This document shows, piece after piece, positions 11,333 through 62,479 of a stretch of 64,000 bases of DNA; positions within the stretch are counted from its first letter, which is position 1; every line of letters begins with the position of its first letter. The stretch is taken from assembly GCA_026770705.1 (NCBI GenBank), contig JANJGN010000119.1, positions 868,001 to 932,000 on the forward strand, given 5' to 3'. This DNA comes from Isurus oxyrinchus. Taxonomy: Eukaryota. The notes beneath the pieces are model-generated. The model had not been told where the DNA came from. It saw only the letters and a list, made by a program, of their open reading frames with translations, and made no database searches. Position numbers and translations under genes: made by a program.

Positions 11333-11543
11333 GAAAGAGACAAGCACCATTTAAATTGTTGAAACCTGCTTATAAATTGGTTTCTACATTTGGCGTGTGA
11401 CTATTACTTGTTTGTAAAGTGCATATCGTTATGCCGTGACATTACTCAGTCAGTATCCTGAAATATTTATGTTGTTTTATTTAATTGTCGATTTATAACA
11501 ATGATCTATTCTCAACTCGCAGATTAACTGATATATCAGCTAA

Positions 11544-11770
11544 AAACAGAGAACTGATGATGCTGCAAATCCAAAGCAAAAACAGAATCACCTGGAAAAA
11601 CTCAGCAGGTCGGGTAGCATCGGTGGAGAAGAAAAGAGTTGACGTTTCGAGTCCTCATGACCCTTCAGGTTCTGCTGAAGGGTCACGAGGACTCGAAATG
11701 TCAACTCTTTTCTTCTGCGCTGGTGCTGCCACACCTGCTGAGTTTTTCCACGTAATTCTGTTTTTGTTTT
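11544..11770. mobile_element. Fold-back (inverted pLTR) Penelope mini-insertion in the GPCR intron
   Basis: Inverted arms centred at ~11668, both homologous to the Penelope 3' end at 61396-61535. Flanked by TGATATAT(C/G)AGCTAA at 11529-11543 and 11770-11784 (TSD, 1 mismatch). Confidence 0.88.
11668..11706 (+). ncRNA. Minimal type I hammerhead ribozyme-like motif (variant core, slightly decayed)
   Basis: GGTT-CTGCTGA-A-GGGTC(ACGAG)GACTC-GAAATGTC-AACT: stems I and II pair, A6 is C, and stem III has a C>T change. Confidence 0.55.
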
Positions 11771-12549
11771 GATATATGAGCTAATTGATTTCAGTGCATT
11801 ACTTTTGGTTCTTGAATCACGCAGAAGCGCAGACAAATCAGTGCTCGGAGCATCGAACCCTCTGGACAGCACTGGGCGTCGTGATTAACTGGGATAGAAA
11901 GTCTGACCCCAGTGGACACGTTTTAATAAGAGCATGTGTCTCTGTGGAACTGAGCTGAATGCGGGTCATCAAGTGTAATGGTACACACTATTTTTGCTTA
12001 ATAAAAACTAATCATTCAGTGGATTGATCACTGCGCACCATGGTAACCCTGCCTTGTATTGTTAAATAACTCGATAGCAAATGGAAAGGTTTTTGCTGCT
12101 GGTTGAATACGTCTATTGATTGAAACTAATTGACATTTTAGATTTCTTATGGAACTTCAGGAAGAGACCGAGTTGCTAAGTGTCCAGTGAGAGACGCAGA
12201 GCTGGACAGCAGTACCGTATTCAAATAATTCGAATAATGACAACGTTACACATTATTGACTAAATGCAAACAGTAAGATTGCGTTGTTGTTATTCATTAT
12301 TCTACCTCTGAATCTCACTGAAGTTTGATGAATCGGTTCTTTTCTGTGAACCAGGGGAAGCATATAAACCCAGAAGCATACATTTCAGATTTTTCTAAAA
12401 CGGAGCTGCGTCCACGGGCACGGAGTAATGCCATTCAAAAATTTAAATATGAATTTATAGTGCACGGTTTTAATGAACAGACGGGTTTATCATCTGTACT
12501 GTTAGAAAGGAACTGATGAATATTGTTCGTAATTTAATTGCAACTCATT

Positions 12550-25440: not shown

Positions 25441-25454
25441 CTTAAAGTTTCATT

Positions 25455-25572
25455 ACAAAAACATAGTTACCTGGAAAAACTCATCAGGTCTGCTGCCAGA
25501 TCTGCTGAGTTTTTCCAGGTAATTCTGTTTTTGTTTTGGATTTCCAGCATCCGCAGTTTTTTAATTTTTATT
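25455..25572. mobile_element. Ultra-short fold-back Penelope insertion with TSD
   Basis: TTACCTGGAAAAACTCATCAGGTCTG / CAGATCTGCTGAGTTTTTCCAGGTAA inverted arms plus tail. TTAAAGTTT(C/G)ATT occurs at 25442-25454 and 25573-25585. Confidence 0.85.
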
Positions 25573-26340
25573 TTAAAGTTTGATTGTTTCTCCTGTGTTT
25601 TACAAAAACGGGGTGCTTGAGTCGGGTCAGTAGAAGCAATAGAATTGAACTGTTGTTGAAACGATGCACCAGTCATTGGGACATATCGCCTAGAAAGCAA
25701 TAATCATAGAAACTATGGAACTCATCCAGCACGTTACTAATTTGTGTGGTAAGAAGATCATATTTTCGCTTGTTGGCAACACTGTGCCACTATTGCACTA
25801 CCACAGTGAAAAAATACTTTTTGCTTTGCCCGCTGCTCAAATATTTGAGACACCTTGCACTCCAAGGGGAATTTGACGTAGACGGAGAACTTGTCAGGAA
25901 TAAAAGTGCTTACCTTTGTACAATTCATGATGTTGAGTAGCACACAATGAGCAAAGTTCCGATTGTCGTGCAGGGTAGCTTTGGTGCGTCCGATTTCAGA
26001 ATCAAGGCTGCATGATGGAAAAGGTGACTGAGTACATTTTGGCGAAGTTGTGATTTGTCCAATTTTGTAGTTCGTAAGGCTATAGGAGCTACTAAAGTCT
26101 TCCACCCTCAATTTCTTCCTATAACACTCTCCTTCTTTGCTCGAATTCTAAACAGTTCCTTTTATCTTTCCAGTCTCTCACACAATTCTTTCCCGGGTGG
26201 TGAAGTTGCTGACAGGCATTCTCTGATTGCCTTAGATTATTGTGGGAAACTTGATTTTCTCGTATATCTGAGGCTTATGCAAGGAATAACGACAGATGAG
26301 CAACTGAAGGCTCAAGCCAATTTTCAGTCAAATATCCTAC

Positions 26341-27161
26341 TGTCATGAAGAAATATTATTTTCTATACTGGAATTGGAAATTATTTTAAATTGGATTTTT
26401 TTTTAGCCTGCCTCTGTTTGGCTCTGTGGGTCTTAACTGGATTAAAGCCTGCTAGCCTGGTTGCTTAGATGCATAGTAGGTTGGGGTGTCATTACGGTAA
26501 ACGGGAGGTGTAGAAAGTAAAGCGTAACTTTGCATCAGTTGAAGAAACAATTCAAAAGAATATGTAAAATCTTGCACCAAGCCGGGAAACGCCACGCAAT
26601 GTGTTTATATCACAAATTAAATTTATGGAATGAAAAGAATATTTCTAAGAGCGGTTTCTTTTTTAAACATTACAATAGAAAATTTACATTCAAAGATTAA
26701 GCTCGGTCTAGACAAAAAGGTGTTTGTTTGCATCTGTCAGTGACATTTCAGATCTAATCAGTCTGTAAGTGCACAACTCTGTCTGAAAAGGAAACAAATT
26801 GAAATGAACCTAATTTAGATTTTTTAAGGTCAAATGTGTTTTGCATGGTGTCTATTTAAAATCTTTCTGTTCTTATTGCCTCTGTGAAGATTTACGTGGT
26901 AGTTATTGTTGTAGGGATTCTTTTAACTTCATTATTACGCTAGTAATTTGTAGACATGTTTATTTGTTTAATTCGTTGTTAATTTAACAAACTTTTAATT
27001 TAGTTTTACATTAAAAAATACTCTTGCAGCTTGATGGTCTTATTCATGAATTCAGCACTGCATCTGAAAAATACCTATTCAAAATATAGGTTATGATAGC
27101 TGTTCAAGTTTCCCTCCGGGATTTAAACAATGCAATCTTTACTAAATGCAGTGCCATAAGA
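26341..27161 (+). mobile_element. Solo LTR of the Gmr1-like Gypsy family
   Basis: Starts TGTCATGAAG and ends GCCATAAGA, resembling the ends of the LTRs at 36757-37487 (TGTCAGGAAG...GGCATAACA) and 46888-47636. Flanks CCTAC and CTTAC form a 5-bp TSD with 1 mismatch. Confidence 0.78.
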
Positions 27162-33470: not shown

Positions 33471-34119
33471 GCATTTGGACAGAAATATTGCATTTGGACA
33501 GAATTATTCTTCCTAAAGTGTTCCCCCTATTGAGGTTGAGCTGATTGGCCAAACATCCTGGGACTATCATTACATGCAACAACTTTTTTTATTATTTTGA
33601 GTAAACAAACAGGTGTTGCATTTCTCCTGTCCTCCAGCCCAGCCTTTAGAAACATTGGAAGATTTGGGCAATGGCATTCAGAGTTTCCACCCTTATTTAC
33701 CAAAGATTTGTGGGTTGTACTCATCACCAGGGAAAAAACCAAGCATTGCATCATACGTTAATAGGCAAAAATATCATTGGATCTGATACAGACCCTCGAT
33801 TGTAATTAATTAGATCTTGACACAAAATATATGCGGGTGCAAATGGGAGGAAAAAAATATAATTGAGGCCTATGATGTTGCCCTGACTTCCTGGTAAATT
33901 CATATCTACCCCATTGTTATGTGATAGAGCATCAATGCCCAAAGCAAGACAGATATTGAAATGGTTTGGCAAGTGATGGATGGCCATAAATGTTGCTTCC
34001 CGGTTGATGTGTTCGATTTGGAGAGGTGGGAGAGACCATGAGGTATTTATGTTCTGATCGGGGGTTCCAAAAACCATTGATAATAGTGTAAAGCTGTTCT
34101 TGTTAAAACAAGTGAAGGG

Positions 34120-34969
34120 TATTTTTTGGATAAAAGGGCAGAGAGAGGCAGAGAGGGAAAATGAAAAGAGTGTAAGCAAGAAGAAGGGTAGGTATTGGGG
34201 AAAGAAAAAGACAGAGGACGGGATTGAGGGGGATAATCACAAAGGGAGGTTGACAAATGCAGGAGAGAAAGGTAGTGGCGAGCGATTTAGACTGGTGGCA
34301 AATGGATTCAGGAACAGAGAAATTAGGGAAGAAGAAAGAGTCGGAGATGGAAATGGATAAAGTTTAAGACAGTTGGGAGGTGTGCGGCAGTTGGTGAAAA
34401 GAGCCCTCCAGGGACAGAGGGAGAGGGCTGAGGAAAATCGAAGGAAGGGGAAGGTGGCAGAGGTGGAACAGTGGTGAGAATCAGAGATGGGTATGTGCTC
34501 GACGTTTTGAAGAACGAGGAAGAGGGACTGAGAGAAGTGGAAAATTAATGGGTTATCGGGATAGAGATTGGCGAAGATAAGTAGAAATAGAATGAGAAAG
34601 TGAGAAATAGAGAGGCGAAGAAAATGTGTATGTGTGCGTGTGCGGGGGGAGGGGGGGTTCGTGGGGAGGGGTGGAGGCAGGGAGGGGAGAGAAAAGTAAG
34701 GGAGGGAGAGAGAACCTGACGGAGAGAGATGAACGCCCAGAAATATAGATACATATTAAGCAAGAGAAATAAGGAAAATTCAATTAAGAGACTGTGAAAA
34801 GTAAAACTAAAGCGCGGGCAAAAGTGGGAGAATCACAGAAAGGAAAAAAAAAAAATAATATGACAGACATTAAGAGACAAAGGGTGCGATTGGAATGGGA
34901 GAAAGAGGGGAAGAATTAGAAATTTCGAGAATGAAAAGTAGGGAGAGGCAAGACGGTACAGAATGCGGC

Positions 34970-35002
<33 letters not shown>
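34120..35002. repeat. Purine-rich (GA) low-complexity tract ending in (GA)n
   Basis: Strong A/G strand bias, with perfect (GA)n at ~34977-34998. Confidence 0.8.
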
Positions 35003-35003
<1 letters not shown>

Positions 35004-35049
35004 CTCGACAGAGTGTCAAAGACGGGATACGTTAAACATAGATGATATA

Positions 35050-35620
35050 CACCTTATTCCATTCTTATAGTCCAAGCTTACAAGCATCTTCAAAGGTGCG
35101 TTAGAAAGCAAAGGCTTTACATCTAGTCAAAGAGAAATTAGGATTTAGAGGAAAGATTTTGAGGTGCGCCCTGAATTCCACAAAACAAGGGGCTGAGAGA
35201 TTGAGGAATGCAATTTTACATTCCTTACAAACGTGCAGCTGAAGGTACGGCCTCCAATGGTGGAAAAATGAAAATGGAAAAGGACAAGTTCCAGTAATGG
35301 AGGTTTCCAGATATCCTTAAAGGTTAAAGAGAATGCAAGGGAACACAAATCGAGTTAAGGTGTAGGTGCTTGAGGGGGTGAAAGATGGAGAGTGTTGGAG
35401 CCGCTAGAGGAACTTATAGAGATCGGGGGCGGGAAGAGGTGCACTATTGGCTGGTAGGCCTCACAGTGATAAACTCTGTTGTAGTGCTTAGTAGGTTTAC
35501 AGAGATATGGAAGAGTTAGTAGATGAAAAGTTTTGGGAGCAAGGCGACCCTGGCTCCATGTGTGATCACACAGTCGCTCAGCCATGAACAGCGTCTTTTA
35601 AAGCTTGGGGGGAGAGATAT
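35050..35620 (-). mobile_element. L2-like LINE 3' fragment
   Basis: The - strand peptide FHFSTIGGRTFSC (ORF 35145-35348) resembles the L2 ORF2 C-terminal G-R-F-S motif. Confidence 0.55.
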
Positions 35621-36446
35621 AAATAGAGGACAGCGATAAGGCTGGAAGGTGGCTAGGGCAATACAATAATTCGTTTCAATAAATGAATAACAAAATCAAT
35701 AGATTGATCGATAGATGTATGGATGCAAACTAAATGGGTGCGGGAAGGGTGATAGATGGCCGAACGGATAGAATAACGGGATGAGGGACATACAAAATCT
35801 ATGGAAGAATGGACGACCAGACTGTCGGACAGACAGAAAGAGGGATGGATGGGGGATAAACAAATGAATAAAAGCATATTGACCAAAGGAGATTTCATCT
35901 ATATGCAGCCTCTTGCTGTTATACAAACTTGTTTTCCGTTCTTTCTGAGAAGAAGCAAGGAGTTCAAAATCGAGCAAGTCTACTTTGAGGAAAGAATGTA
36001 TCTGCTGTGCTATTTTATGTTCATCAGGGAACGTTTTTACTGCCTTCCTGTCAACTTCACTTCCGGTTCACCGAAGACCAAGTTTGTCCTTTGTCCTCTG
36101 CTCCCTTGACTGCCCGCCTCCATCTGTTAATTTATTCCCCGGACTCTGCATGTTATATCTCGACATTGAAACGCAGCCTTTGGCGTTAGAGTCTCCGCCT
36201 GCATAGCTATAAATGTATTTTCAATGTCTGCTTAAATGTGCTCATTGAATGCAGTCCCCGGAAGTATCCCGATGATCTTGACCCACTGCTTTTCGCTGTA
36301 TCAGATAACTGAGGCACATTTTTTTTTAAGTTTTTCCCGCTCACTGACCCATCTTAATTTTCGTTAACAGCTCTCCTCTGGATGCATTACTTCCGATACT
36401 GCTGCGGTTACCTCATGCCCCATGATTCTAGATATTTCAGCTGCTC

Positions 36447-36756
36447 TCAGTTCTTTTGTTCAGCAATTAATTTCTTAATCGATGTAGTGGATGATTCAGC
36501 GCATTCTGTAACTGCACCCTGAACTAAGCCTGAGTCAACATATAAATATTTTTTTGTGCAGCAAACTTAAGTTCCACAGCATTTACGCAACATTATCATA
36601 GGTGCAAGAAAATTCATCATCTCAAGCATTTAGGACATCAAAATATCTAAAATATGCACCAAAGATCGAAACTGTGATTCTCTCCCACAGTCTGTCCCCT
36701 CAGTCTCTGGTGAACTCGGCTGGCAAATAAAATGTCTCTCGCTGTCAGAGATTTGA
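36447..36756 (-). pseudogene. GPR139-like GPCR pseudogene, 3' part (end of TM5, ICL3, TM7, C-tail)
   Basis: The - strand gives KSLTARDILFASRVHQRLRGQTVGENHS (cf. NVLTVRHILVASRVRKRLRGQSKG). After an apparent deletion of TM6 come ML.NLS/CCT and TQA*FRVQLQNALNHP (cf. TQSKFREQFKRAGTYP). Stops and frameshifts present. Confidence 0.88.
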
Positions 36757-37487
36757 TGTCAGGAAGAGGAAGTAATGATAATATCATTGGAGTTTTTCTA
36801 ACATTTTTAATCGAGTATTAGTCTGTGTATGCTAATTGGATGAAAGCCAGCGAGGCTGGGTGCTTTGGTGTACCGTAGTTTTCGGATGTAAACAGGGCTG
36901 GCGGATACATTTGCATTTTGCTAAATAGAACATTCAAGAGTGCGGGTGAGAAATCTTGCATCTAGTTAGGAAGACACCAAGCAATCCTTTTATTACTGGT
37001 GACAATGGAACTATGAACGGATTTCAAAAGGCCTGGTCATACAATGAAAATTTGCATTCAGAAAGAAAGGCTAGGTTTAGCAGAAAGGTGAACCCATGTG
37101 CATCACAGAAACGTGTAAGTTGAAAATTTGTAAGATTAAAACTGTTAGTATTGGAACCAAACAGTAAGGAACTACATTTCGAATTCGGCTGGTGAAAATG
37201 CTCCGCCTAGTGTCTGCTTAAGTCTATTGGTTATTGTTTCCTTGGGAATTTGTTTAAAATTTAAAATAGAAATGTGTAGACATGTGTATGTGTTTAATAC
37301 CTTTTTTGCAAAACAATACAAGTTTAATTTAGTTTGATATAGAGACGTCTGGGGGTTTGGCGGGTTCATTTATGAATTCAGAGTTCCATATCAAATATTC
37401 CAATTGAAAACATCGGTTATGACGGTTGTTGGAAGTTGTCCCCTCGGATTTTAAATAACAGTCTTTTAAAACTGCTATGGCATAACA
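36757..37487 (+). repeat. 5' LTR of the Gmr1-like element
   Basis: TGTCAGGAAG...GGCATAACA, collinear with but clearly diverged from 46888-47636. Confidence 0.8.
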
Positions 37488-40400
37488 ATTTTGAACTGTT
37501 GGGGTATACAACAATTTTGTCTGATATAATGTGGTCAACCTAGTGGGTGGAAGCTTTTCCGACCAGATCAAACACATCCAAAATTATTGCGAAATTTATT
37601 TTAGAGAAAGCGTTTACACATTATTTTAGTAAAATGGGTACAACAACTAGTAGAAACTGTACAAGAAGCAAATTATGTAACTGCTCACCGACAGGGAAAG
37701 AAGAAACAGCAAAGCAAGGCTTATTTCGATGCAAAAGCTACCCTGATAGAGTTGAGCCCCGGACAACGAGTAATGATTAGTATGCATCAACCAACCTCAT
37801 TCTTGAGTCCAAATCCAGATCTACCAACCCCTCCAATCCCCTCATGTCCCTACCTGTCATAAGCCTATAAGGAGTGTATCCTGTTGAAGCCATGGTATTC
37901 CTGATTATTATCAGCACATAGGGCAGAACAACCTGCCGGTTTGTCTTGTGCTGCTGCACCATTTTGGCTATCATGTTTTTCAATGTCCGATTCAGAATTT
38001 CCGCAATTCCACTAAACTGTGGTCTATAGGGTATGTGGAATCTCTGCCTGATCCCAAAAAGATTCATAACATCGTGCATTACTTGGGCTGTAAAACATGT
38101 TCCCTGATGCAATTCTCTGCCTCCAGGTAAACCCCAGCATGTAAACACCTTCCCTAAAAAAAAAAATTGCAGTAATTTTGGCTGTGTTTGTTCTGTTCGG
38201 AAAAGCTTCCACCTGTTTAGTGAAGGTATCCAATAACACTAGAATATCCTTGTAGTCCTCTGTTGTGGGGGAAGGGATCCTACATAGTCTATCTGTAACT
38301 TAGTCCAAGGCCCTTCTACTGGTCTATTATGTTGGAGGCCCCTTTCCTAAAATTTCTATCGGGGTTGTGTTGTGCACAGATCAACAATTCTTGACATAGT
38401 GGTGCACACCACCTTTCATTCCTGGCCACCAGCATACCTCCTTTATCAAATACAGGGTGCTCTCCATTCCTTTATGTCCTGATAGGTCATGGTACTGGTG
38501 GATAATTTTCTTTCGCCCCTCCTCTGGTGCCCCAAATTTCCGCTCACGTAAAACCACTCAATTTTGAATATAGACCCCCTCGTGCCTTTTAAATATGTCT
38601 GACTGTGCTCCTTCTATAAATTTTTTCAATTCTCCATTTTTCTTTTGCTCATCCATTAAATCCACTACTTTAACCTGCTTCTCATTCTGGCCCCCGATTT
38701 CCAAAATCAGTGGCTACCATTCCTGTCCACTTACAGCACCTCGTTTGGCTAGGTCATCAGCTTTCCTGTTCCCTTCGGGAGATAATTTTGAATGAGCTTT
38801 AACTTTTTTGACCACAAAGTCTTTCCCTTGTGCTTCTTGAAAGATGTATTGTAATAGCGGGGAGGAAGGAAGAGGCCCTCCATCTGCAGAGACAAAATCT
38901 TTTGCATCCCATAGGGGCAAATGTTCTGTGAGGCTATTACAGACAGAAATGCCATCAAAATATATGACTGATCTAGGCGGAAATATTCCGGGTGTCGAAC
39001 CACATATGCAATGGCTGCTAGTTCTGCTCCCTGCACATTCATGGTTTATGGATATTTCAAAGCCACACTAAATCTTTCCTGTCCGTTTTCATACTCCATG
39101 GATATCCCACAGACAGTTCTCCTTTCCCCATGCTGTACTGATGAAGAGTCATCCACCAGGATTTAAAATAGGGTTTTCCTTTCCTGTTTGCAATGTTTTT
39201 CTACTTTCAGGCCCAGTCCTACTCCCTCCCTTTTGTTCTGATACAAATGGGCCCTTGCAGTCATTTGCGTTCATCATTTGACATTCCTGTTTTTCTCCCT
39301 GATAAAGTAAATTATCTCTTAACATGATAATGTGTTATCCCCCTTTATGGTTATATTTCTCCCGTGCAACATTATCCATCTAGGGATTCTATTTGTCTAA
39401 CTGTACCATCCTTAATCGTTCCGTAATTCAGTAGCTGTACAGGGATGTGTTCTGTTAATGTTGTAATTGTGTTCATTCCCACTATAAAGGTAAAATGCTG
39501 CACTGACCAAAAGACAGCAAGTGTTTTGCGCATATTGTATACCCCTGCTCTACTGGTGAGAGCATATGTGAGGCATACGCTACGGGTCGTAATTTCCCAT
39601 CTGTCTCCTGTAGTAGAACAGCTGAAAGGTTGGTGTCTGTGATAGCCACCCCAAATGAAAATGGCTCAGTTGGATTTGGGGTTTTCAGAGCTGACACAGC
39701 AGCTAATGCTTGCTTTAGAGCGTTCATGGCCTGGGTTTGTAATGTTTTCCACTCAAAGGTCAAATTCTTTTTTAATAATTCCATTAGCGGTGCTGCTTTT
39801 TTGGTGAATCCATCTATGTGGTCCCTACAATGTCACACCAAATCTAAGAAGGACGTTAACCCTTTTACGTCTTGTAACATTGAGTCTGCCAACTGTGTTC
39901 ATCCTACGCTTGTCAATGTCCCTCTTCCCCGATGTCACAATCATTGCCAAGTAAGTAACTTATTGTTTCATGATCTGCGCTTGTTTAGGGTTGATCTTTA
40001 ATCCCAAGTCATTTAACTGCAGTAATTCACTTAGTCGTTGATTATGTTGCTTTTTGGTTTCAATTTGCAGGGGTATGTCGTCTACATACTGCACTAGAAA
40101 TTCAGCCCTCGAGAATCCTTTTAACCCTTCCCTTACACGTTGGTGAAATATGGACAGGGAATTCTGAAATCCCTATGGCAGGGTGATCCATGTATATTGC
40201 TTTCCATAGAAAGTAAAAACGAATTTATATTGACATACTTTCTCCTGTGCACTAGACCAAAAACCGTTACTTATGTCCAAAACTGTAAACCATTGCCATT
40301 CTCATTTTGTCGAACTACTGTCTCTGGGCTAGTTGCTACAGTAGGGGTGTTAAAGGGGTCACTTCCCTTAATTCTCTGTAGTCTATCTGTAGTTGTCAGC

Positions 40401-42986
40401 TGCTGTTGGTTTTTCTCACTGGCCATATATGTGCATTGTTAGTAGAAGCTATTGGTCTTAATATCCCTTGCTGCAGCAGACTCTGTATCACCTTTCCTAT
40501 TCCTTATTCTGCTTCTTTTGGTAAACCGTACTGCTTTTGTGGTTTGGAGTCTGAACCTTTTATGCACACACGTCTGGTCATTTTCCCACAATCATGCTTT
40601 AGTCGGACGATTAATATTGAGTTTTGTGCAATAATTTGCTTTACATGAAGATCGTCACTCATTTCTCCTGGTTCTATCCACGTTTCCCCGATCGTGCATA
40701 TCCTATCCTGATATTTTCCTACCCAGTGAGTGTGTGATTTATACTGCCTTTGTCCAAAGGCATTTGTCAAATCATACAATTAACTAGGTCAAAGCAGAAT
40801 CCTGCTTGGACCATACAGTCGCTCCCTGAAAGATGTTCTAGTTCTCTGGGTAATTTGATAAGAGCCACTGAATGTTCTATCAATATGTCTCCCACACCAA
40901 CTTCCAACGGTACACTCACATATCCTACTTGTGAATGTCCTGTGAATTGGCTTAGAAAAATGTTGTTTTTAATTTTCCAATCTATGTCATTGATCGGCCT
41001 GGTGCTGAAGGCGGTGTGGGATCCCCCTGTGTCCCAAAGTAATTTAATAGGCCGGCGTCCAACCCTACCATTCACTAGGGCTCTTCCTGTGTCATCCCAC
41101 TGCATATCACACACCCATTATGGAGAGGCCTGAGACCGTCATTGCAGTTCGGGGTACAACTCACAACTCGCTGGTATTTCTATCATATCACACTGCAGAC
41201 GTGCTCTATTCTGTCCTTCCACGGGTAGGCTCCGGTTTCCTCCCTGACCTGAATTTTCTCGTCTCCAGTTTGGGCAGTCGCTTGAGAAGTTTCCCTCTCG
41301 GCCACAGTTATATCATCTGGACGCCTAGCCCTGATTTCTCCCCGTCCCCGAGAAGTTTCCTTTTCCTCTGCCTCTACCCAATGTCTGATAGGCTGGAGCA
41401 TGGTCCCTCTGAGGAGATCCCCTCCCTTCATTTCTCCAGGTTGTCAGCTGATTCTTAACAAGCATTGCTCTGTCCCTGGATGTCTTGGGTAGTTTTGGTG
41501 TTTCCCTTTCCCATACTCCAACTATCTTTTTAAATTATCCAGTGCTCTCTATGTGCGTCATATGTGGAATCAAACTGATCCAATGCTTTCCTCGACTCCT
41601 CAGTGCCTTGCAACACGAGCATACTCTGCCATCAGTTCCTAACCTCCAGCTGTAAATTATCCTTATCTAGGCCAGTGGCATTGACCAATTAAAATACGAC
41701 CCAAATACGAGCCAAACTGTGGTGGTGTATTCACCTTTTCTTTGATAGCATTTCATCAGCGCCTACACTGGGACCCCTCTGTTATCGTCCATGACAGGTA
41801 AAATCTGATTCTTTGAGGCCTCTTTTGTGCCTCTACCAAGTTATTGCTCCTCTGGTAGGGCAGAGTATATATGTGGGTGTAGGCACATTAGAATTAATTT
41901 TTCCTCATCATCGTCTAAGCCGTGTATCCCTCCCTGTTGCCTGACTGCGAGGAACCACTCGCTCGGATCATCCCTGGGTGCACACGTCCCTATATCTTTT
42001 GCAATATCCCTCAGTGCTTGTATCCCAAGTGGGTTGGAATATGTCATATTGGGGCCGGCTTGACCCTGGCCATCAGCCCTACCTTTGCTCTAGTGGTTAC
42101 AAGGGGGGCCATTGGGGCAGACAGTTTTTCCGGATCTGGTTTATATGCCAGTGGTGGATCCTCTGGTGGAGTTTTCTCGTCACCCCCGTTGTATCTATCC
42201 GCCCTGCCTGCTAAATCATCCCAATCTATATCCCCTTGACATTTTTCTTCACTTCTTCCGGGTGTAAAAGCACACTGTATGCCCCTCTGTGCAGGTGGCT
42301 GATCTTGCAGCCTCACTGTTAGTTTCTGACACTTTGTGTGATCACCGGTAGTGCTCCTCTTTTCCTGAGCTGCTCTGTGAATCACATTCATAGCACTTTT
42401 AAAATCACTACGTTGTTGTTTCCAACCCTCCTCCTCAGCTTTAGCTGTTTGGGCTTCTCCCTCTCTCTTACTCTTTTTTATCAGCCAATGTTTCGAACTG
42501 TAACTGATATCGGTTCATGTGCAACAAATCCACACTTCTCTGCTGTTTTAAATCAGTAACCTTCTCACTAAGGCACTTCTCACTAAACTCCTCATGGAGT
42601 TTCTTATTTTCTTCCTCTAGTTCGTCTTCCTCTCTCCTAGCCTGCTTTTAGAATTCTATCCATTCCTGAAATAAACATCCGATCGCTACGGACTTCGGTA
42701 CCTGTTTTAAATTTCTTATCTGACATCTTTGTTTGCGCAATTCTCCAAAGGGCCTCTATAGCGGGATTTCCCTTGTGACCAATGTGACCTACATTTTCCG
42801 TGTAATGCGGCCACTCCCCTATTACGTATTTATGAAGAATTCCCTTCCAGTCAAAACAGATATTCCCTTTTATTCGTCATCTTATGTTAACAGCTATGAA
42901 TTAACCCAAACTCCTGTTATGCCTATACTTTGCCAAATTGGTTCGCTTGAGTCTCCCGGTAACTGAACTCAGAGACGTATCCTTGA

Positions 42987-43004
42987 GCTCACACAGGGAC
43001 ACCA
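42987..43004 (-). promoter_or_regulatory. Primer-binding site, tRNA-Asn-like
   Basis: TGGTGTCCCTGTGTGAGC starts 4 nt after the LTR end (...GCAACA). It matches 15/18 to TGGCGTCCCTGGGTGGGC, the complement of the vertebrate tRNA-Asn 3' end (recalled sequence). Confidence 0.75.
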
Positions 43005-43008
43005 AACA

Positions 43009-43719
43009 TGTTGCAGGAGGTCACCAGTAATGGTTAATGGCTTAGTACACAGAGGAGTAGAGCGAATTCTCTCTTAACTTTAAACGCGCTTATTCACGTC
43101 TTTAGATCATCTACACACAATTCATACATCTGTTTAAATATAGACATACAGTTTACAACAGGTTATCCAGTGTTATACCCAGAACTAGGATCTAAACACT
43201 CATACACTATGTTTCTCTGACACTCCCTGAGTGGTCACAGAATATAAAAGCTAGTATCCGAAAAGGAGAGCTGATGCTGGCCAGGCATTCCCTTCTCTCT
43301 CCCGTGCATCTCTACGTTGCGGAAGTAGTTTCCCTCGCTTCTGCGATGGTTGGTCTCCAGAGTCTCGCTGCCCGATGCCCGAAGTCCTCTCAGTGTTACA
43401 CTGAATTGTATATCTTCAAGCTGTTCTGTCTCTCTTCCCGTTGGTTTTGGTCTGCTTTTCTGATCTTTGGCATCTTCTCTATTCGCTGTTCCAAGACTTG
43501 AAGGATCATTTCGTTTCTCTGTTTCTAAATATGGACGCATCACATTTCCATTGTCTTGAAGAAACTCAGCTTCTTTGAAAGCGGTTCTAACCAGTTCGGA
43601 CCCAGTGATTGGAGTCAGCTTTGAAAAGTTACTCAGGCCAGCAACTGGACTCAAGTTACTTCAGTTCAAACGTTGCTTTTGCCTGTGTCTGGCAGTTCAG
43701 CTGCAGCCAGTGGCCAACA
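43009..43719 (-). repeat. 5' LTR of the retrovirus-like element (711 bp)
   Basis: Bounded by the inverted termini TGTTG...CAACA and adjacent to the PBS. Gmr1 protease-region sequence (NDRAGSQM...FPDCVVTRS) resumes immediately at ~43720. Confidence 0.75.
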
Positions 43720-46700
43720 TGTGCAACGATAGAGCTGGATCGCAAATGTGGTTGATGCCTATAGAAGTTGAGCAACCTGTATAATTATTTCCAAAAGAGC
43801 TGTTACAGTAGGAACATCCTGGATTATTTCCTGATTGTGTTGTAACGAGGTCAAAATCTTACTGGGAAGAGCGAGTCGCACACGAAGGTCAAGCAGTTCA
43901 AAAGCTAAAAGAAGTCCAAATCGAATTAGTTGACACTGTATTTGATATCATTTTTCTGGAGGAAAGAGGGCAGGACCGTTCAACAGAAGTGTTTAACTCA
44001 ACGAAGTTAGTGAAGTTACAGAATAAAGAATTTACAAATAAAGGAGTTATATCAGAAAGCCTATGCAGAAAGAGACGCAAACTGTACTCCAATATGTTAT
44101 TATCTTTAGGGAGATATCTAAATATAAAAGCAGAAGTCGGATCATTTCTTAGCAGATGAAGACTGCATTGAAGTTCATCAGGTTATCATCCCAGTTGGGT
44201 AAAAGAAAACGAGATTCTGAGGAATGTCACCAAATTCCAATGTGTGGAAATTTAGGAACTAGGAAAACACAGGGAACGAACCATTGCCTTTACATTTTTG
44301 CCCAGTTTGCATAGGGATGTATTAAAATTCTGTAGAACCTGTCATAAATGTCAAGCAGTGATTAATGCCGTGCGTTTAATCCCTATACCACCGTTTGAAT
44401 AACCTTTTACATGGGCTACAATTGATTGTGTAGGACCCTTTTCTAAGTTCAAAAGTGGAAATCAGTATTTTCTGACAATAATCAATGTATCTACGAGATT
44501 TCCTGAAACGATTGCGAAATATTTCAACTCAGAGGATTGTGGAGGACTTTTTATTTTTGCATGTTATGGTGTAGGGTGTAGGTAAAAAAAAGCGATCAGA
44601 TAAGTCTTCAAATTTCATTTCGCACCTCTTTTGTGAAAAAAAAATGAACAATTTGGGGATTCAACAGTTCAAGTCAACAGTTTATCTTCCGGGATCATGG
44701 GGAACTTTTGAGAGATGGCTTCAAACTCTAAAGACAATGAGAACGGCATTTTGTGAGAATTATCCACAGGATTGGAATGCAAGAATTCCGTTCCTTTTAT
44801 TTGCTATTAGAGACGCTCCAAATGCATCGACTGGTTTCAGCCCTTTTTAACTAATGTATGCCTCTCAGGTAAGGGGCAACTGAAGCTGATTCATGAAAAG
44901 TTGATGGGTCAAATACAAAAGATATTTTTCTGGATTACATAAGATTTCAGGGAAAGATTGAACAGAGCATGTGAGTTGGCGAGGAAACATTTGAACATAT
45001 CACAGCAATTGACGAAAGTGAAGACAAATAAGCAGGCTAAACCACATAGTTTTTCTTCTGGAGAGAAAGTGCTAGTTCAGTTACAATTGCGAACTGATTC
45101 ATTAAATGGACGATTTACTGGAACTTACAGGATCGGAAAGAAATTGATTGAAGGAAATTATTTAATACATACTCCAGATATAACCAAAAAGCAGAGGGTC
45201 GGACACGAAAATATGCTTCAAACGTGCTTTCACAGGGAAGAGGAACAAAAAGAGCTATTTTTGATGGTGACTGAAGAAGAACAATTAAAACTGCAGGTCT
45301 CTGCAATTAAATTTCCTCTAATCGAATTGGAAAATGAGGGGGTGCTTGAAAGTTTTAATGAACTATTTAGTTACGTTCCAAACAAGTGTCAAAGTGGTTT
45401 GGAAATTATTTTGCAGTAACAGATGTATATTTGTGGAAAGAAGTTGGGAAACATACATTTTGCTATATTTAATGCCTCAGTGCAAGTTCTTTCTTCAATT
45501 AGGCAACATCCTTATAGATTAAATCCGGCAAAGTTATCTCAAATACAGAAAATATCTTACTTTTGTGCTTCAAAGCTATATATGTGAGTCTAGTTGCACT
45601 AAATGGAGTGCACCTAACCCATTGGTACAGAACCCAGTTGGAGAACTATGACTCTCTCTGGACTATGGAGAGATGAATGTGGTGACAAAAACGGATTCAT
45701 ATCCTACACGACGGTTGGAAGATTGTATTAAGAAAGTAGGGCAATCGAAATTTATCACACAGCTTGGCTTGCTAAAGGAAAGTGGCAGCAACCTTTGTCA
45801 GAGAGAGCAATAGGGATATGAGCCTTTGTAACACCAAGTGAACTACACCAGTTTAAGGTCATGCCATTTGTTATGAAGTATACACACGTGACATTTTGAA
45901 GAATGACAAACAAATTAATTGCGGGTCTAAGCAATTGTGTTGTTTTTATTGATGATCTAAACGTTTGTATTTAGAACATTCACCCCCTCTGGAAAACATA
46001 TTTACTCGAATATAAGAAGCTCATTTGGCGTCGAACTCGGCTAAAAGTGATTTTGCAAAAGTGCAGGTTAAGCATCCAGGACATATCATTGGAAATCGTA
46101 AGGTTGCTCCCAGGTAATGTGAACGTCAAGGATATCGTGGATTTCCCAGTACCTCCGACAAAACAAGAATTTATGATATTTCTGGGCATGAGTGGGTTTT
46201 ACGGTAAATTTATGTCAAATTTTAGCCGAGTGGTTGCTCCACTGGCTGAATTATCATAAATGAACAGGACGTTTCAATGGACATTGGTGTGTCAGAAGTC
46301 ATTGAGTAGTTCGAAAGCTACGTGTTAACTATGACATCAAGTTTGGAAGTACCCAATTATGCCACTTTATGTTCGCCATTGATGCAAGCGATATAGGCAC
46401 TATGGCTGTACGGTTACAACTTTATAACATTGGAATTGTAAAATCGATAGGATATTTTTTCACAGAAGCTGGACGTGCAACATAGCCGATAGTCAACGAT
46501 AGAAATAGAGTTCAATAATGCTGGCAACGCAGCATTTTGAAATTTATGTTGCAAGCAATTCATTGGAAACAATTATTTATCTGGACCACAATCCCATGAA
46601 GATTTGGAGAAATTTTGTGATAAAAGTAGAAGACCTTGTACGAAGAGATTATTATTACAACCATTTATTCTACGGATTATACATGTGGAGGACCTGCGTT

Positions 46701-46887
46701 TTAATCTTAAAGGAAAATTGTGGATTTTCAAAAACATGGTCATTGCAGTGGAACGATGCCTTATTTTAATGCATGCGTCTGGTAATATAATAGGCTAATA
46801 AGTATGGGACATAGTGTGAGATGGTTTATTAAAAAATGGAAGCTTCCTTTAGGATGCTGACTGTTCATTTTTCGATAGGAATGGGGA

Positions 46888-47636
46888 TGTCAGGAAGTGA
46901 TATTCATGCAGATAATATTGGAAATTTTCTTTGTTAGTAGATGTTTGGCCTATGCGAATTTTAACTGGATTAAAGACAGCTCGTCTAGGTACTTTTATGT
47001 ATAGTAATTTTGAGCCGTAAGTAGAGGTAGAGTGTTCATTTAGATTTTGTTGAATGGAGCATTCAGGAATGGGTGTGTATTCTTGCATGTAGCTAGGAGA
47101 TGCCAAGCAATGCTTATGTTATTAATAAAGCTAATACAATGATAGGGCATCAAAGGACCTGGTGAATCAATGGAAATTTGCATTCAAAAGGAAAGGATCG
47201 TTATTAGAGAAGGGTATCTGTGTGCTTTGCAGAGACATGTAAGATGAAAGCCTGTAAGCCTACAGAAATAATAAGCATTGCAAAGGAGCCAAATTGAAAG
47301 CATCGTCATTTTGAATCCATAAGGTAAAAATGCTTTACCTGGTGTCTGCTTAAGTCTAGTGGTTACAGGTGCCTTAGTGGAGATTAATTTGAGAATTTGT
47401 TAAGAAGTTGTGATAGTTGTAATTTGTAGACATATGTATGTATTTCATAACCTGTTGTAAATAAATAAATATATAATTTAGCTTGATATCCACACCTCTT
47501 GGGACTTCGTTGGTTCATTTCCGAATTCAGAGATGCATATTCAACATACCAATTGAATGTATAGGCTATGGTAGTTGTATACATTTTACCTCTGGGGTTT
47601 CAAATGAAGATATTAACCAACTGCTGCGTTATAACA
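46888..47636 (+). repeat. 3' LTR of the Gmr1-like element
   Basis: TGTCAGGAAG...GTTATAACA, preceded by a polypurine tract. Confidence 0.85.
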
Positions 47637-47848
47637 GTTGAACAATGGAATTAACCCGATTGGAAGCAATAGGGTTTTTTTTTTTCGAAGATCATAAAAC
47701 CAACCGATCATGCATCATTAAAGTAGCTTGGATTTATAGAACAACGGCAAATTGAGCTGCCGATAACAATAATAGTTAAACCTAAAGCAAAAACAGAATT
47801 ACCTGGCAAAAACTCAACAGGTCTGGCAGCATCGGCGGAGAAGAAAAG

Positions 47849-47887
47849 AGTTGACGTTTCGAGTCCTCATGACCCTTCGACAGAACT
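47849..47887 (-). ncRNA. Minimal type I hammerhead ribozyme motif (A6 replaced by U)
   Basis: - strand AGTT-CTGTCGA-A-GGGTC(ATGAG)GACTC-GAAACGTC-AACT: stems I and II fully paired, palindromic ACGT stem III, GUC cleavage triplet. Confidence 0.7.
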
Positions 47888-47902
47888 TCGACAGAACTTT
47901 GA

Positions 47903-47941
47903 AGTTCTGTCGAAGGGTAATGAGGATTCGAAACGTCAACT
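47903..47941 (+). ncRNA. Minimal type I hammerhead ribozyme motif (A6 replaced by U, stem II weakened)
   Basis: AGTT-CTGTCGA-A-GGGTA(ATGAG)GATTC-GAAACGTC-AACT. Confidence 0.6.
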
Positions 47942-49619
47942 CTTTTCTTCTCCGCCGATGCTGCCAGACCTGCTGAGTTTTTCCAGGTAATTCTGTTTTT
48001 GTTTTGGATTTCCAGCATCCGCAGTTTTTTGTTTTTATCTCTATAGTTAAACCTAACCTAGGTTGGAAAGGTTATTTTAAGCAGGACGGAATGCTATCTG
48101 CTTCTAGACCGACAGCCGCAGTTTATCTGGTCCAATATTGAGATTTCAACTTCTGGCAACATATGACGTCGAATCGATCAAAATTGAAAGTGACAGTTAA
48201 CCAAGCAGTACAGTCTGTGGGTGCAAGAAACAAGATGTAGCGAACACTGCACACGCGTAATTTTCAGGAAATTGAGCGGGACACAATAATCATTGATTCG
48301 GTTTACCATAACCCCTGAAATAATGATGAGGGCTTCTGTTGGTGCCATGACCACAGCGTAGCAAGTATCGCTGGTGGAGAGGCGGCACTTTCCATAGGAC
48401 AAGATCAATTGACGGAGATGGGCGGTTACTGAAGAACTCTTTCCGTTTCTGAGTCCAGGTAGATTGGATTTTAGCTGCACGAATTTGGTAGCAAGTCAGT
48501 GGTTAGGCTTAACTCGACCGTGACTTCAGCCAGCATCCAAACCAGGTGTAACAAATATGTTTCTGAGCCAAGCAGCAGATTACTTCCAGGAGCCAGGTTG
48601 ACATCTTAAATGTTGTTCACGAGTAACCAAAATGGGTATACTGGACATTGTTATGTGATCTCCACCAACTCTCAGTGTAAGGACTCATTCCAGTTTGGGA
48701 TCTCAGCCTTCTGCATGAAACTCACCATTCAGGTGTGAGCAATGCCCTCATACAGGAGACTCACATTTATCTCAGACCACTACACGTAATTTGGGTACCG
48801 GAGCTAAAGATGTATCACATTATTATGTATAGAAGGGTATTAATGGAGTTGGTGCACATGCGATTAGAAAGCAGGCATTCAGTTCAACTGGAAGATCACT
48901 AAAAGAACTAAAACATATTTTTGTTTATAGAATGGAGGTAATAGCGAATTTCACACATATGTTAGTTTCTGGCCGATCATAACAGAATCACAACTCCATG
49001 TATCAGCTGCCGACATTCTGTCCAAAGGTAATACAGAAACAAACAGATTAGCATTGTGGAAATTGTTATGCCTCTATCCTGTGGATAAGAGTATGCTTAT
49101 GGGGTATTGAATGGAGGCCATTAAATTAACAGAGGCTAATGAGGATAGGATAGTTGTGACACATGTGTGTGTGTCCAATTCTCATTCACCTCAATACAGG
49201 ACAGTCGGCCTGAGACAGTGAATTGAGTATGAGGGAAACAGGAATCGAAGATTATACTGATAGTCCCCGATGACTTGCAGAAGAGTAAGGTTTGTCTCCA
49301 CCAGGAAGAATGGCTGAGCCTCGTTTCTGTGCTGTAAAACCTGCAATTGGGTATTAGCTAATTATAATCATAACGGAAATATTATTCATTAAAACATTAT
49401 TCTAATTTCCCAGTGGCTCTTGGGACTGTGTATGGCGATGGAGATTATTCAGCACCCAGAATCATCGTCATCAGCTCTACTTACAGCAAGTGTAATATGA
49501 TGCCCCGCATTGAATACATTTATACAATGACAGGTCCCACAGGAAAAACATGGTCGTATTTGACAGGTGCAGCACTGCATTAAATGTCCACAAAGGCATT
49601 ATGGATTTTTATTTTCATC

Positions 49620-60574: not shown

Positions 60575-61536
60575 TTCTGTCCTCCTACTCCTCAACCCCA
60601 ACCTATGGCAGCTCCCCATGCTCACGCAAAAGATGCAATACCTGCCCCTTCAATTCCTCTCTCCTCACAGTCCAAGGTCCAAACACTCCTTTCAAGTGAA
60701 ACAGCATTTCACTTGCATTTCCCCTAACTTAGTCTACTGCATTCGTCGCTCCCAATGCAGTTTCCTGTACATTGGAGAGACCAAACGTAAACTGGGCAAC
60801 CGCTTTGCAGAACACCTGTGGTCTGTCTGCAAGAAAGACCCAAAGCTCCCTGCCACTTGCCATTTTAACACTCCACTCTGCTCTCTTGCCCACATCTCTT
60901 TCCTTCGCTGGCTGCATTGTTGCAGTGAAGCGCGACGCAAACTGGAGGAACAGCACTTCATCTTCTGACTAGGCACTTCACAGACTTCTGGACTGAATAT
61001 TGAATTCACCAACTTTAGATCTTGAAATCCCTCCTTCATGCCCAGTCACATTACGATTCTTCCCCCTTCCTTTAGTTTTTTTCCAATAATTTATATAGAT
61101 TTTTATTTTCCCCACTATTTCCAATATTATTAAATCTATACCTTTGATGCCCTGTGAGTCTTTCCACCCCACCTCCCCTCGAGATGTACAGGGTGTCCCG
61201 CCATCCATTCTTTGTTAGCACATTCGTTTGGAAATTATCACCACTTCTCTTTGTTCTTTTATCTGCGACATCTTTTGATTATCTGCTCCTAATACTGCTT
61301 GCATGTCCTTCCAATCACCCCCCGCCCCCGCTTCTCTCCCCGCCACTCCCCCACCTTAAACCAGCTTATATGTCACCCCTCTCTTATTTTTACTTAGTTC
61401 TGCTGAAGGGTCATGAGGACTTGAAACGTCAACTCTTTTTTTCTTAGCGATGCTGCCAGACCTGCAGAGTTTTTCAAGGTATTCTGTTTCTTGTTTTGGA
61501 TTTCCAGCATCCGCAGTTTTTTTTTGTTTTTATTTC
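60575..61536 (+). mobile_element. Penelope-like retroelement family 1, 5'-truncated (GIY-YIG endonuclease + 3' UTR + pLTR)
   Basis: PCSRKRCNTCP, then FTCISPNLVYCIRRSQCSFLYIGETKRKLGNRFAEH...RKLEEQHFIF*LGT...GLN (GIY-YIG). The 3' end matches the fold-back mini-elements. Confidence 0.92.
61396..61434 (+). ncRNA. Minimal type I hammerhead ribozyme motif in the Penelope pLTR (A6 replaced by C)
   Basis: AGTT-CTGCTGA-A-GGGTC(ATGAG)GACTT-GAAACGTC-AACT, in sense orientation downstream of the GIY-YIG ORF. Confidence 0.68.
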
Positions 61537-62479
61537 TGACCTCGCATGCTCTAACGTTCCAGTGAAGCACAAAAGAAGTTGGTGGAATTTAAACTCCCAG
61601 CTTAGAAATTTTACAGCATTCTGGATGCAACTTCGAGTTCAATACTTTCGTATCAAATACTGGCATATGTTATTGCCAAGACCCGGTCGTGTCTGGTTAT
61701 CATGTTTATGATTTCGGAGAGTGTTGGCCAATATACACCTGCTCTCGACCGATACTTTCTTAGTTTAATACTATCATTACCACTCCGTTTGCATGATTTC
61801 CCATGACATCTTTGTGTTTTTTTTAAATTCCTCCTCACAAACCCAATCTTGTCCTGCCTTTCTTCTCCACGTGACTCTCGGCCATTTTTCTGCGGCATAA
61901 AATATATGAGTGTTCAACTGCACATTTATGAAAAGGCCTCAGTTAGATCTCCACATGATAGCACTTTTCTGTCGCTACAAATTCTGTCAGATCTGCTGGG
62001 TTTTTCAGCACCCCCTCTTTTTTTTATTTCAGGTCGGCACCATGCACCGTGGTTTGTTTTTATAATGTTATATTAGAGTTTTAGGCACGTGTGAAATACC
62101 TTCTTTGATAACTGCTACGTTGTCATTCTCGCTTTCCAACTTAACTTAAATTCCGATTTCACTCTTGACAATTATCCCTTCATACCGTTTGACATTTTTT
62201 TTAAGTTCAAGACTTTGTAGGTCCTCTATTTTCCACTTCAAAACAAATGGGAATTTATATAATTTTATGGTCAATCTTGTTGGAAGGATACATAATCGTG
62301 AGATCCATTCCTTCTCATTACCTCTGACATCTGTGCTTTTGTCCAGAAGGCATCGTTCTCAGTAATTATTCTATATGCATTTTCGGAACTCCCTCTCTAG
62401 TTGACTATTGACATGTCAATTCCCCCCAGCTTTGGAATATTCAAACAGCTACTGGAATATATTTGTATAAGTCCTTACG

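Follow-up and report, generated by a model that had tools for sequence, protein, structure and literature searches.

A truncated shark provirus from a multicopy retrovirus family, probably of the SnRV group, with a predicted F-type envelope gene in its fuller copies

To which retroviral lineage does a decayed element with two RNase H domains in the genome of the shark Isurus oxyrinchus belong? The element lies on the minus strand at positions 37490-43719 of a 64,000-nucleotide stretch of contig JANJGN010000119.1 (positions 868,001 to 932,000; hereafter the window). A preliminary description, made from the letters alone, had taken it for a basal lineage related to lokiretroviruses (Loki) or foamy viruses. 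In our view it is, with good probability, a dead, 3′-truncated provirus of a multicopy endogenous retrovirus (ERV) within the canonical Retroviridae, likely of the snakehead retrovirus (SnRV) group (clade Huo, class III-related), whose fuller copies carry a predicted F-type env gene. Papers are cited by PMC number.

The window copy and its family in the genome

All Pol motifs quoted in the preliminary description were found on the minus strand: LDISNGFWS (40254-40280), GFQNS (40158-40172) and YVDD (40077-40088) in the reverse transcriptase (RT), FGVAITDTNLSAVLLQ (39608-39655) and RPVAYAS (39569-39589) in the tether, and AELAA (39013-39027), KVKAHS (38789-38806) and GNRKADDLAK (38744-38773) in the second RNase H. 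On the same strand, the copy begins with a 711-bp 5′ long terminal repeat (LTR; 43009-43719, TGTTG...CAACA), which is the LTR found at either end of two-LTR copies elsewhere. After a 4-nt spacer follows a primer-binding site (PBS; 42987-43004) that agrees at 15 of 18 positions with the 3′ end of the genome's own tRNA-Asn(GTT). The gag gene (41142-42880, with a presumed start) has a coiled-coil N-terminal part, a capsid region and one CCHC zinc knuckle (41274-41315), and is crossed by stops and frameshifts. It ends in an in-frame TGA followed by CGG (41136-41141), beyond which lie an aspartic protease (DTG; 40728-41135), the RT (39790-40540), the tether, a degenerate Gypsy-type RNase H without the first catalytic Asp motif (39400-39789), the second, cellular-type RNase H (38744-39160) and the zinc-binding and core domains of integrase (IN; 37810-38560), which break off at 37810.

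Every one of these coding regions, from gag through IN, is interrupted by stops or frame changes, and the rest of pol, env and the 3′ LTR are missing. Past this break, the final 270 bp (37544-37813) consist of IN pieces on the opposite, plus strand: part of the core, present as a duplicate (37544-37624), and the C-terminal portion (37617-37811). The window copy is an ordinary dead fossil, a 3′-truncated provirus. The deletion of the 3′ end had been recognized before, though not the inverted IN pieces; the further statement that Env could not be assessed did not hold, because other copies in the genome carry env.

A 1-kb pol query of the 4.98-Gb genome returned 77 candidates; 40 were scored and 40/40 matched, giving a family of at least 40 related stretches. 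We took 10 kb around 39 loci, five of which are segmental duplicates (L013-L017; see below); the 34 others are 82-86% identical to the window copy. The search for full-length copies that had been proposed earlier was productive: both LTR ends could be delimited in nine of the 34, with lengths of 8.2-9.2 kb (typically ∼8.5 kb). Target-site duplications of 4 bp were exact in seven of these nine copies, carried one mismatch in another and were absent from the last. Their LTR-LTR distances (Kimura two-parameter) were 0.039-0.103 (median 0.058), corresponding to ∼90-235 million years at 2.2e-10 per site per year, a rate assumed for elephant shark (PMC4422223), or to ∼9-24 million years at a mammalian rate; the range depends on the rate chosen. 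A polypurine tract preceded the 3′ LTR in all six copies inspected. The Asn-like PBS reported earlier was borne out, as 24 of the 34 loci match tRNA-Asn(GTT) at 15-18 of 18 bases, eight of them perfectly.

At the gag-pol junction, the last gag codon was TGA in 31/31 loci in which the junction was matched, and the next codon was CGG in 22; knuckle and protease were both in frame with the junction in 17 of the 31. Since UGA-CGG is a type II readthrough context (PMC3159437), we infer that Gag-Pol was made by readthrough. The first Cys and the His of the knuckle are missing from the window copy, as its description as decayed implied; other copies retain all four residues of the CCHC (in L047, zf-CCHC was matched at E 8e-8). 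Where decay is less advanced, Pfam identified a tether (RT_RNaseH/RT_RNaseH_2) and, further along a single open frame, RNase_H (PF00075); in L040 the E-values were 9e-23 and 1.4e-18 respectively. The dual RNase H claimed for the window copy was thereby upheld. The tether of other copies likewise lacks the initial Asp motif; the second RNase H keeps D-E-D-D and matches the RNase H of XMRV, foamy viruses, human and E. coli. A tether with a second RNase H is common to canonical retroviruses, Loki and Odin (PMC7947760, PMC9040795). Judged by domain order and motifs, the arrangement seen here is this retroviral one.

Placement of the polymerase

The best RT match among predicted proteins was SnRV Pol (P0002; 44% over the RT core), which we assigned to SnRV by its agreement with the SnRV RT in the supplement of PMC7947760 and with a 10,688-nt record (L056). 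The family reads LPQGF at a motif where SnRV, foamy and epsilon viruses also have PQG, and the combination LDISNGFWS/LPQGF/YVDD is the SnRV signature. Loki RTs in the PMC7947760 supplement have PFG at that motif, or PxG with F or L.

Tree references came from IMG/VR, a metagenome collection and protein matches, and were labelled, the four to five Loki rows included, by motif identity with the same supplement. The shark rows were unbroken natural stretches from five of 18 copies with long RT stretches; the window RT core was a further row, its two stops replaced by X. Several species labels among the references are our assumption. In the RT tree (56 rows), the family grouped with SnRV and a Latimeria (coelacanth) ERV at 91/84; Loki was monophyletic (100/100), and Loki plus Gypsy stood apart (100/96). 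The RT+tether tree (31 rows) united canonical retroviruses, this family among them, at 100/99 against Loki plus Gypsy, and recovered the same grouping with SnRV and the Latimeria ERV at 82/83. A shark+Loki clade was rejected by the approximately unbiased (AU) test with both data sets (p=0.036 for RT and p=0.004 for RT+tether). Foamy RTs, represented by mammalian rows only, formed a distant 100/100 clade in both trees. The RT also falls outside the Gypsy radiation and is accompanied by two RNase H domains, which separates the element from Ty3/Gypsy (Metaviridae) and agrees with the earlier view that it is a retrovirus rather than a vertebrate Gypsy element.

On these alignments, we place the family's RT inside the canonical retroviruses and, with moderate support, next to SnRV. 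The PQG motif, the RT trees and the AU tests indicate that the family is not a lokiretrovirus. The proposed Loki and foamy affinities were thus abandoned, and nesting within a shark ERV family or the orthoretroviruses, named in the preliminary description as evidence against itself, is largely what we observed, given the grouping with SnRV, an orthoretrovirus, and the motifs common to the family and CmiERV lineage I.

The shorter domains also fell outside Loki. In the RNase H tree, which had long branches and no cellular outgroup, a Loki+foamy group (99/97; the group I RNase H of Loki) left the family out, and IN lay outside the Loki clade (92/91) in a tree without a CGIN1 row. When the genome was queried with a Loki Pol, nothing exceeded 38% in the RT part, at reduced sensitivity. 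The best match to that query (C12:92446494-92449580; 30% over 1100 aa, few frame breaks), which was not among the loci taken, may be another ERV family. Viral contigs were scanned for relatives of the shark Pol and for ERV-L and FLERV references, and none turned up; a plasmid collection gave distant Gypsy-like matches only. Against the PDB, an RT piece matched foamy RTs best (E 3e-15), with murine leukaemia virus (MLV) close behind (1e-14).

Two groups of sequences came to light alongside. Near the base of the canonical retroviruses lies a clade of teleost ERVs that also have two RNase H domains (the P0003 cluster of 120 members; P0078-P0089), with relatives named from Cirrhinus, Sinocyclocheilus, Coilia and Solea and an IN ∼40% identical to that of the shark family. 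In the metagenome collection, L070, L071 and L073 are near-complete lokiretrovirus sequences with env, probably host DNA.

The envelope gene of fuller copies

Among 27 loci matched at the end of pol, the stop codon was TAG in 22, TAA in three and another in two, and in 20 of them env starts ∼20 codons beyond this stop in the same frame. The stretch between env and the 3′ LTR is only ∼150 bp long and leaves no space for accessory genes. We scored the 34 loci (L018-L051) against the env region of one copy: the env core was colinear in three, kept with a 5′ deletion in two, and interrupted by an internal deletion of 0.9-1.2 kb in 21, whereas two retained the 5′ part alone and six had no env. Twelve of the 21 deletions have the same breakpoints within ∼5 nt; this 1.2-kb deletion fuses the N-terminal domain to the membrane-proximal part, and a second deletion is common to four copies. 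Because the same deletion recurs on different contigs and at different target sites, env-less derivatives appear to have multiplied. A genome search with the Env core gave 13 matches, nine of them long, and every env copy examined carries stops or frame changes.

The Env (class I) has a signal peptide, an N-terminal domain of ∼180 aa and a basic furin site ahead of a hydrophobic fusion peptide; a heptad region follows, and the membrane anchor lies at the C-terminus. It is 49% identical to an intact 745-aa protein of the stingray Hypanus sabinus and 78% to Heterodontus proteins. An Env profile search of 1.84 billion representatives returned 37 matches; the ten looked up were from Scyliorhinus (three), Mustelus, Chiloscyllium, Rhinoraja, Pristiophorus, Pelodytes and Xenopus, plus one Loki-type Env (E 3e-5). 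Full-length family members include P0032 of Chiloscyllium punctatum (739 aa; UniRef name 'Ig-like domain-containing') and P0038 of Pelodytes ibericus (723 aa).

An F-like env had been raised as a possibility from the outset, and structure prediction supported it. The AlphaFold model of the stingray homologue (built from 35 rows; mean pLDDT 53; its first 217 residues are unreliable) matched respiratory syncytial virus (RSV) F (E 3e-11) and human parainfluenza virus 3 (hPIV3) F (8e-10) in the PDB with Foldseek; in BFVD it matched F-type proteins as well as the Env of WEHV1, WDSV and feline foamy virus. VIA Z-scores were 11.2 to Nipah F (root-mean-square deviation, rmsd, 5.3; 275 aligned) and 8.5 to foamy Env 8rm0 (rmsd 4.7; 266 aligned). 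By sequence, the family profile matched hPIV3 F (E 0.004); a single shark Env matched nothing in the PDB by phmmer, so that only profile and fold gave matches. In the ESM Atlas, the stingray Env met F, baculovirus F and spike proteins, all below the tool's bar. For the N-terminal domain, BLASTP with the stingray N-terminus gave no match, Atlas hits were below the bar, and AlphaFold pLDDT was 33. From these models, the Env of fuller copies is predicted to be a fusion protein of the paramyxo/pneumovirus F type.

Profiles also linked this Env to those of other retroviruses. The family profile aligned with SnRV Env at an HHalign probability of 92.5, and a wide profile that included one Loki row detected foamy (E 3e-5), SnRV (0.003) and WDSV Env (0.011) among 290 test sequences. 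In the Env tree, Loki and SnRV are both long branches, and which is closer is not resolved. By sequence comparison, the Env is homologous to those of Loki, SnRV and foamy viruses. Foamy Env itself is F-like (PMC11468914), so that an F-like Env does not define Loki.

Intact 745-aa homologues are encoded in two stingray genera, by Hypanus sabinus (XP_059838750) and Hemitrygon akajei (XP_072911529), with 96% identity to each other. On their sequences, they are candidates for a captured env, or for a young ERV. In Hypanus, the chromosome that encodes XP_059838750 also holds an incomplete further copy (P0026). Our literature search, which took in passages of PMC12813294, PMC10435555, PMC10699275, PMC8227577, PMC8278194, PMC12193657 and bioRxiv 2021.11.23.469661 and 2023.10.26.564294, found no description of shark ERVs of the SnRV clade with an F-type Env, nor of a captured stingray env; the stingray genes may be among the 3,891 env open reading frames (ORFs) that PMC12813294 reports from 154 genomes, 40 of them chondrichthyan.

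Competing placements, genomic setting and implications

Several results weigh against placing the family with SnRV. The grouping stayed under the starred support level in both RT trees and joins two long branches, and the reference rows lacked Odin, FLERV, ZFERV-2, ERV-L/S, CmiERV and alpha-, beta- and lentiviruses. The RNase H formed its own branch outside an SnRV+epsilon+gamma group (98/95), and IN went with the teleost ERV clade and epsilon/gamma viruses (92/91), not with SnRV; both are short domains with long-branch warnings. BLASTP of Gag against SnRV Gag aligned the knuckle only, with nothing significant beyond it. A narrow Env profile built without Loki gave 26-39 bits for Loki Env against 0.4 bits for SnRV Env, the fold evidence comes from the stingray homologue rather than a shark copy, and Pfam found no fusion-protein family (PF00523 was not matched) in the env frames or the stingray protein. 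The weakly supported SnRV join (82/83, 91/84), the separate RNase H, the IN placed away from SnRV and an Env profile nearer Loki than SnRV would suit a separate, unnamed basal lineage of canonical retroviruses, belonging neither to the SnRV clade nor to the spumaviruses; it would be a mosaic that combines an RNase H of its own with an Env related to that of Loki. We consider such a lineage improbable: two independent RT trees agreed on the neighbours, the motifs of CmiERV lineage I, for which a position with SnRV had been published, are near-identical by eye, and domain swaps are common among retroviruses (PMC7947760). A first lokiretrovirus of cartilaginous fishes would account for the dual RNase H, the coiled-coil Gag N-terminus and an F-like Env with similarity to that of Loki (E 3e-5 among 1.84 billion proteins), but is very unlikely in view of PQG instead of PFG, the AU test (p=0.004), RNase H and IN outside the Loki clades, and the ceiling of 38% in the RT part for the Loki Pol query at its reduced sensitivity; the F-like Env, found in foamy viruses (PMC11468914) and SnRV too, is not Loki-specific. 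Barely credible is a foamy-like ERV, to which the best PDB matches of the RT piece (E 3e-15 versus 1e-14 for MLV) and the F-like foamy Env might point. Foamy RTs are a distant 100/100 clade (in a tree without fish FLERV references), and the shark family has a CCHC knuckle in Gag, a stop codon that divides gag from pol within a single frame, an Env anchor at the C-terminus only, and ∼150 bp from env to the 3′ LTR with no accessory genes.

Comparison with described systems bears on the preferred placement in the SnRV group. SnRV, an unclassified orthoretrovirus (PMC12193657) whose relatives, clade Huo, span all vertebrate groups (PMC6001957), resembles the family in its RT signature, 44% RT core, coiled-coil Gag with one CCHC and homologous Env; it differs in its size of 10.7 kb, its 1042-aa Env and its 3′ accessory ORFs, for which the shark family with its shorter env has no room, and the shark IN and RNase H did not group with it in their trees. 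CmiERV lineage I of elephant shark clustered with SnRV (Han 2015, PMC4422223). Compared by eye from the supplement of that paper, with no computed comparison, it resembles the shark family in its RT (LDISNGFWS and LPQGFHNSP) and IN motifs, coiled-coil Gag with one CCHC, TGA-C ending gag and dual RNase H. It differs, again by eye, in its LTR and in a gamma-type transmembrane (TM) subunit with immunosuppressive-domain and CX6CC-like motifs. Its PBS is Ser-like, not Asn as in the shark family. SnRV-related ERVs in cartilaginous fishes were already known; this family is a variation on them, new in its predicted F-type Env, Asn PBS and UGA-CGG junction.

Foamy viruses have YVDD and D-x-S/A-NGFW motifs and an F-like Env core (VIA Z 8.5) in common with the family, but differ in their distant RT clade; the shark family has a CCHC Gag, a readthrough-type junction and no accessory region. 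Foamy Gag lacks CCHC, foamy pol occupies a separate frame, and accessory genes follow env. Lokiretroviruses are alike in having a tether and new RNase H (PMC7947760) and an F-like Env of detectable homology, in which a furin site, a fusion peptide, a coiled coil and a TM are likewise present. In contrast, their RT forms its own clade, the shark RNase H lies outside the Loki+foamy group, the shark IN fell outside the Loki clade in its tree, and the shark Env of ∼750 aa has an extra N-terminal domain relative to the ∼570 aa of Loki Env. The earlier statement that Loki had not been reported from chondrichthyans was accurate as far as the screen in PMC7947760 goes, which covered them and lists none (Orectolobiformes 0/3, further species screened). 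Odin, for which the trees had no row, has no env and an RT sister to Loki, whereas the shark family has env and an RT off the Loki side. XtERV-S (PMC8278194), compared by description only, is likewise class III-related with gag and pol in one frame split by TGA, and its env ancestry also differs from that of its pol relatives; it differs in a Ser PBS, a dUTPase and a class I (gamma-type) env.

The window copy sits between the LTRs of a host Gypsy element on the plus strand, opposite to its own orientation. The left LTR (36755-37496) is ∼68% identical to the right one (46886-47643); the remainder (43720-47643) has IN (44277-44877) before RT (45565-46316), an order that we take to be of the Gmr1 type. 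The host gag/protease part is absent at the same place where the ERV 3′ end is absent. L013-L017 repeat the window over the whole 10 kb, flanks included, at 97-98% identity; they are therefore segmental duplicates, and we rejected them as independent insertions. Together, these make at least six occurrences of window 33870-43920 with its flanks, all on small contigs, as a segmental duplication or array. A short interspersed repeat with palindromic or head-to-head copies, 80-95% identical, occurs at 11538-11771, 47778-48048, 61396-61540 and 25450-25580. A repeat pair ∼9.8 kb apart (2322-2481 and 12094-12268) and an LTR-like stretch at 26417-27159, a third relative of the two host Gypsy LTRs, suggest further old LTR elements in the window.

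In the life cycle that we propose, reverse transcription would be primed by tRNA-Asn, Gag-Pol would arise by readthrough of the in-frame UGA-CGG, the tether and second RNase H would serve RT as in other retroviruses, integration would leave 4-bp duplications, and Env would presumably mediate entry. Env-deleted derivatives would have multiplied once in the germline. In the probable order of events, the window copy inserted into the Gypsy element, then lost its 3′ end by rearrangement, and was later copied with its flanks in a segmental duplication.

According to PMC7947760, Loki Env is not significantly similar to the Env of retroviruses, and four scenarios for its origin are left open there. 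Here, a canonical retrovirus has an Env homologous to that of Loki, and the wider profile extends to the Env of foamy viruses, SnRV and the walleye virus. This favours descent from a common F-like ancestor, and an F-like Env is no longer a marker of lokiretroviruses. Tentatively, and as something we think rather unlikely as a whole, the shark, ray and frog Env family would join the Loki, SnRV, foamy and epsilonretrovirus Env in one F-type family; the F-like Env would be ancestral, with gamma-type replacement (swapped even within a clade, as in CmiERV-I), and one member would have been domesticated in live-bearing stingrays, the first captured env of F type. Set against CmiERV-I, the family suggests that env was exchanged inside a single pol clade, and the intact stingray homologues offer a lead on env capture in viviparous cartilaginous fishes.

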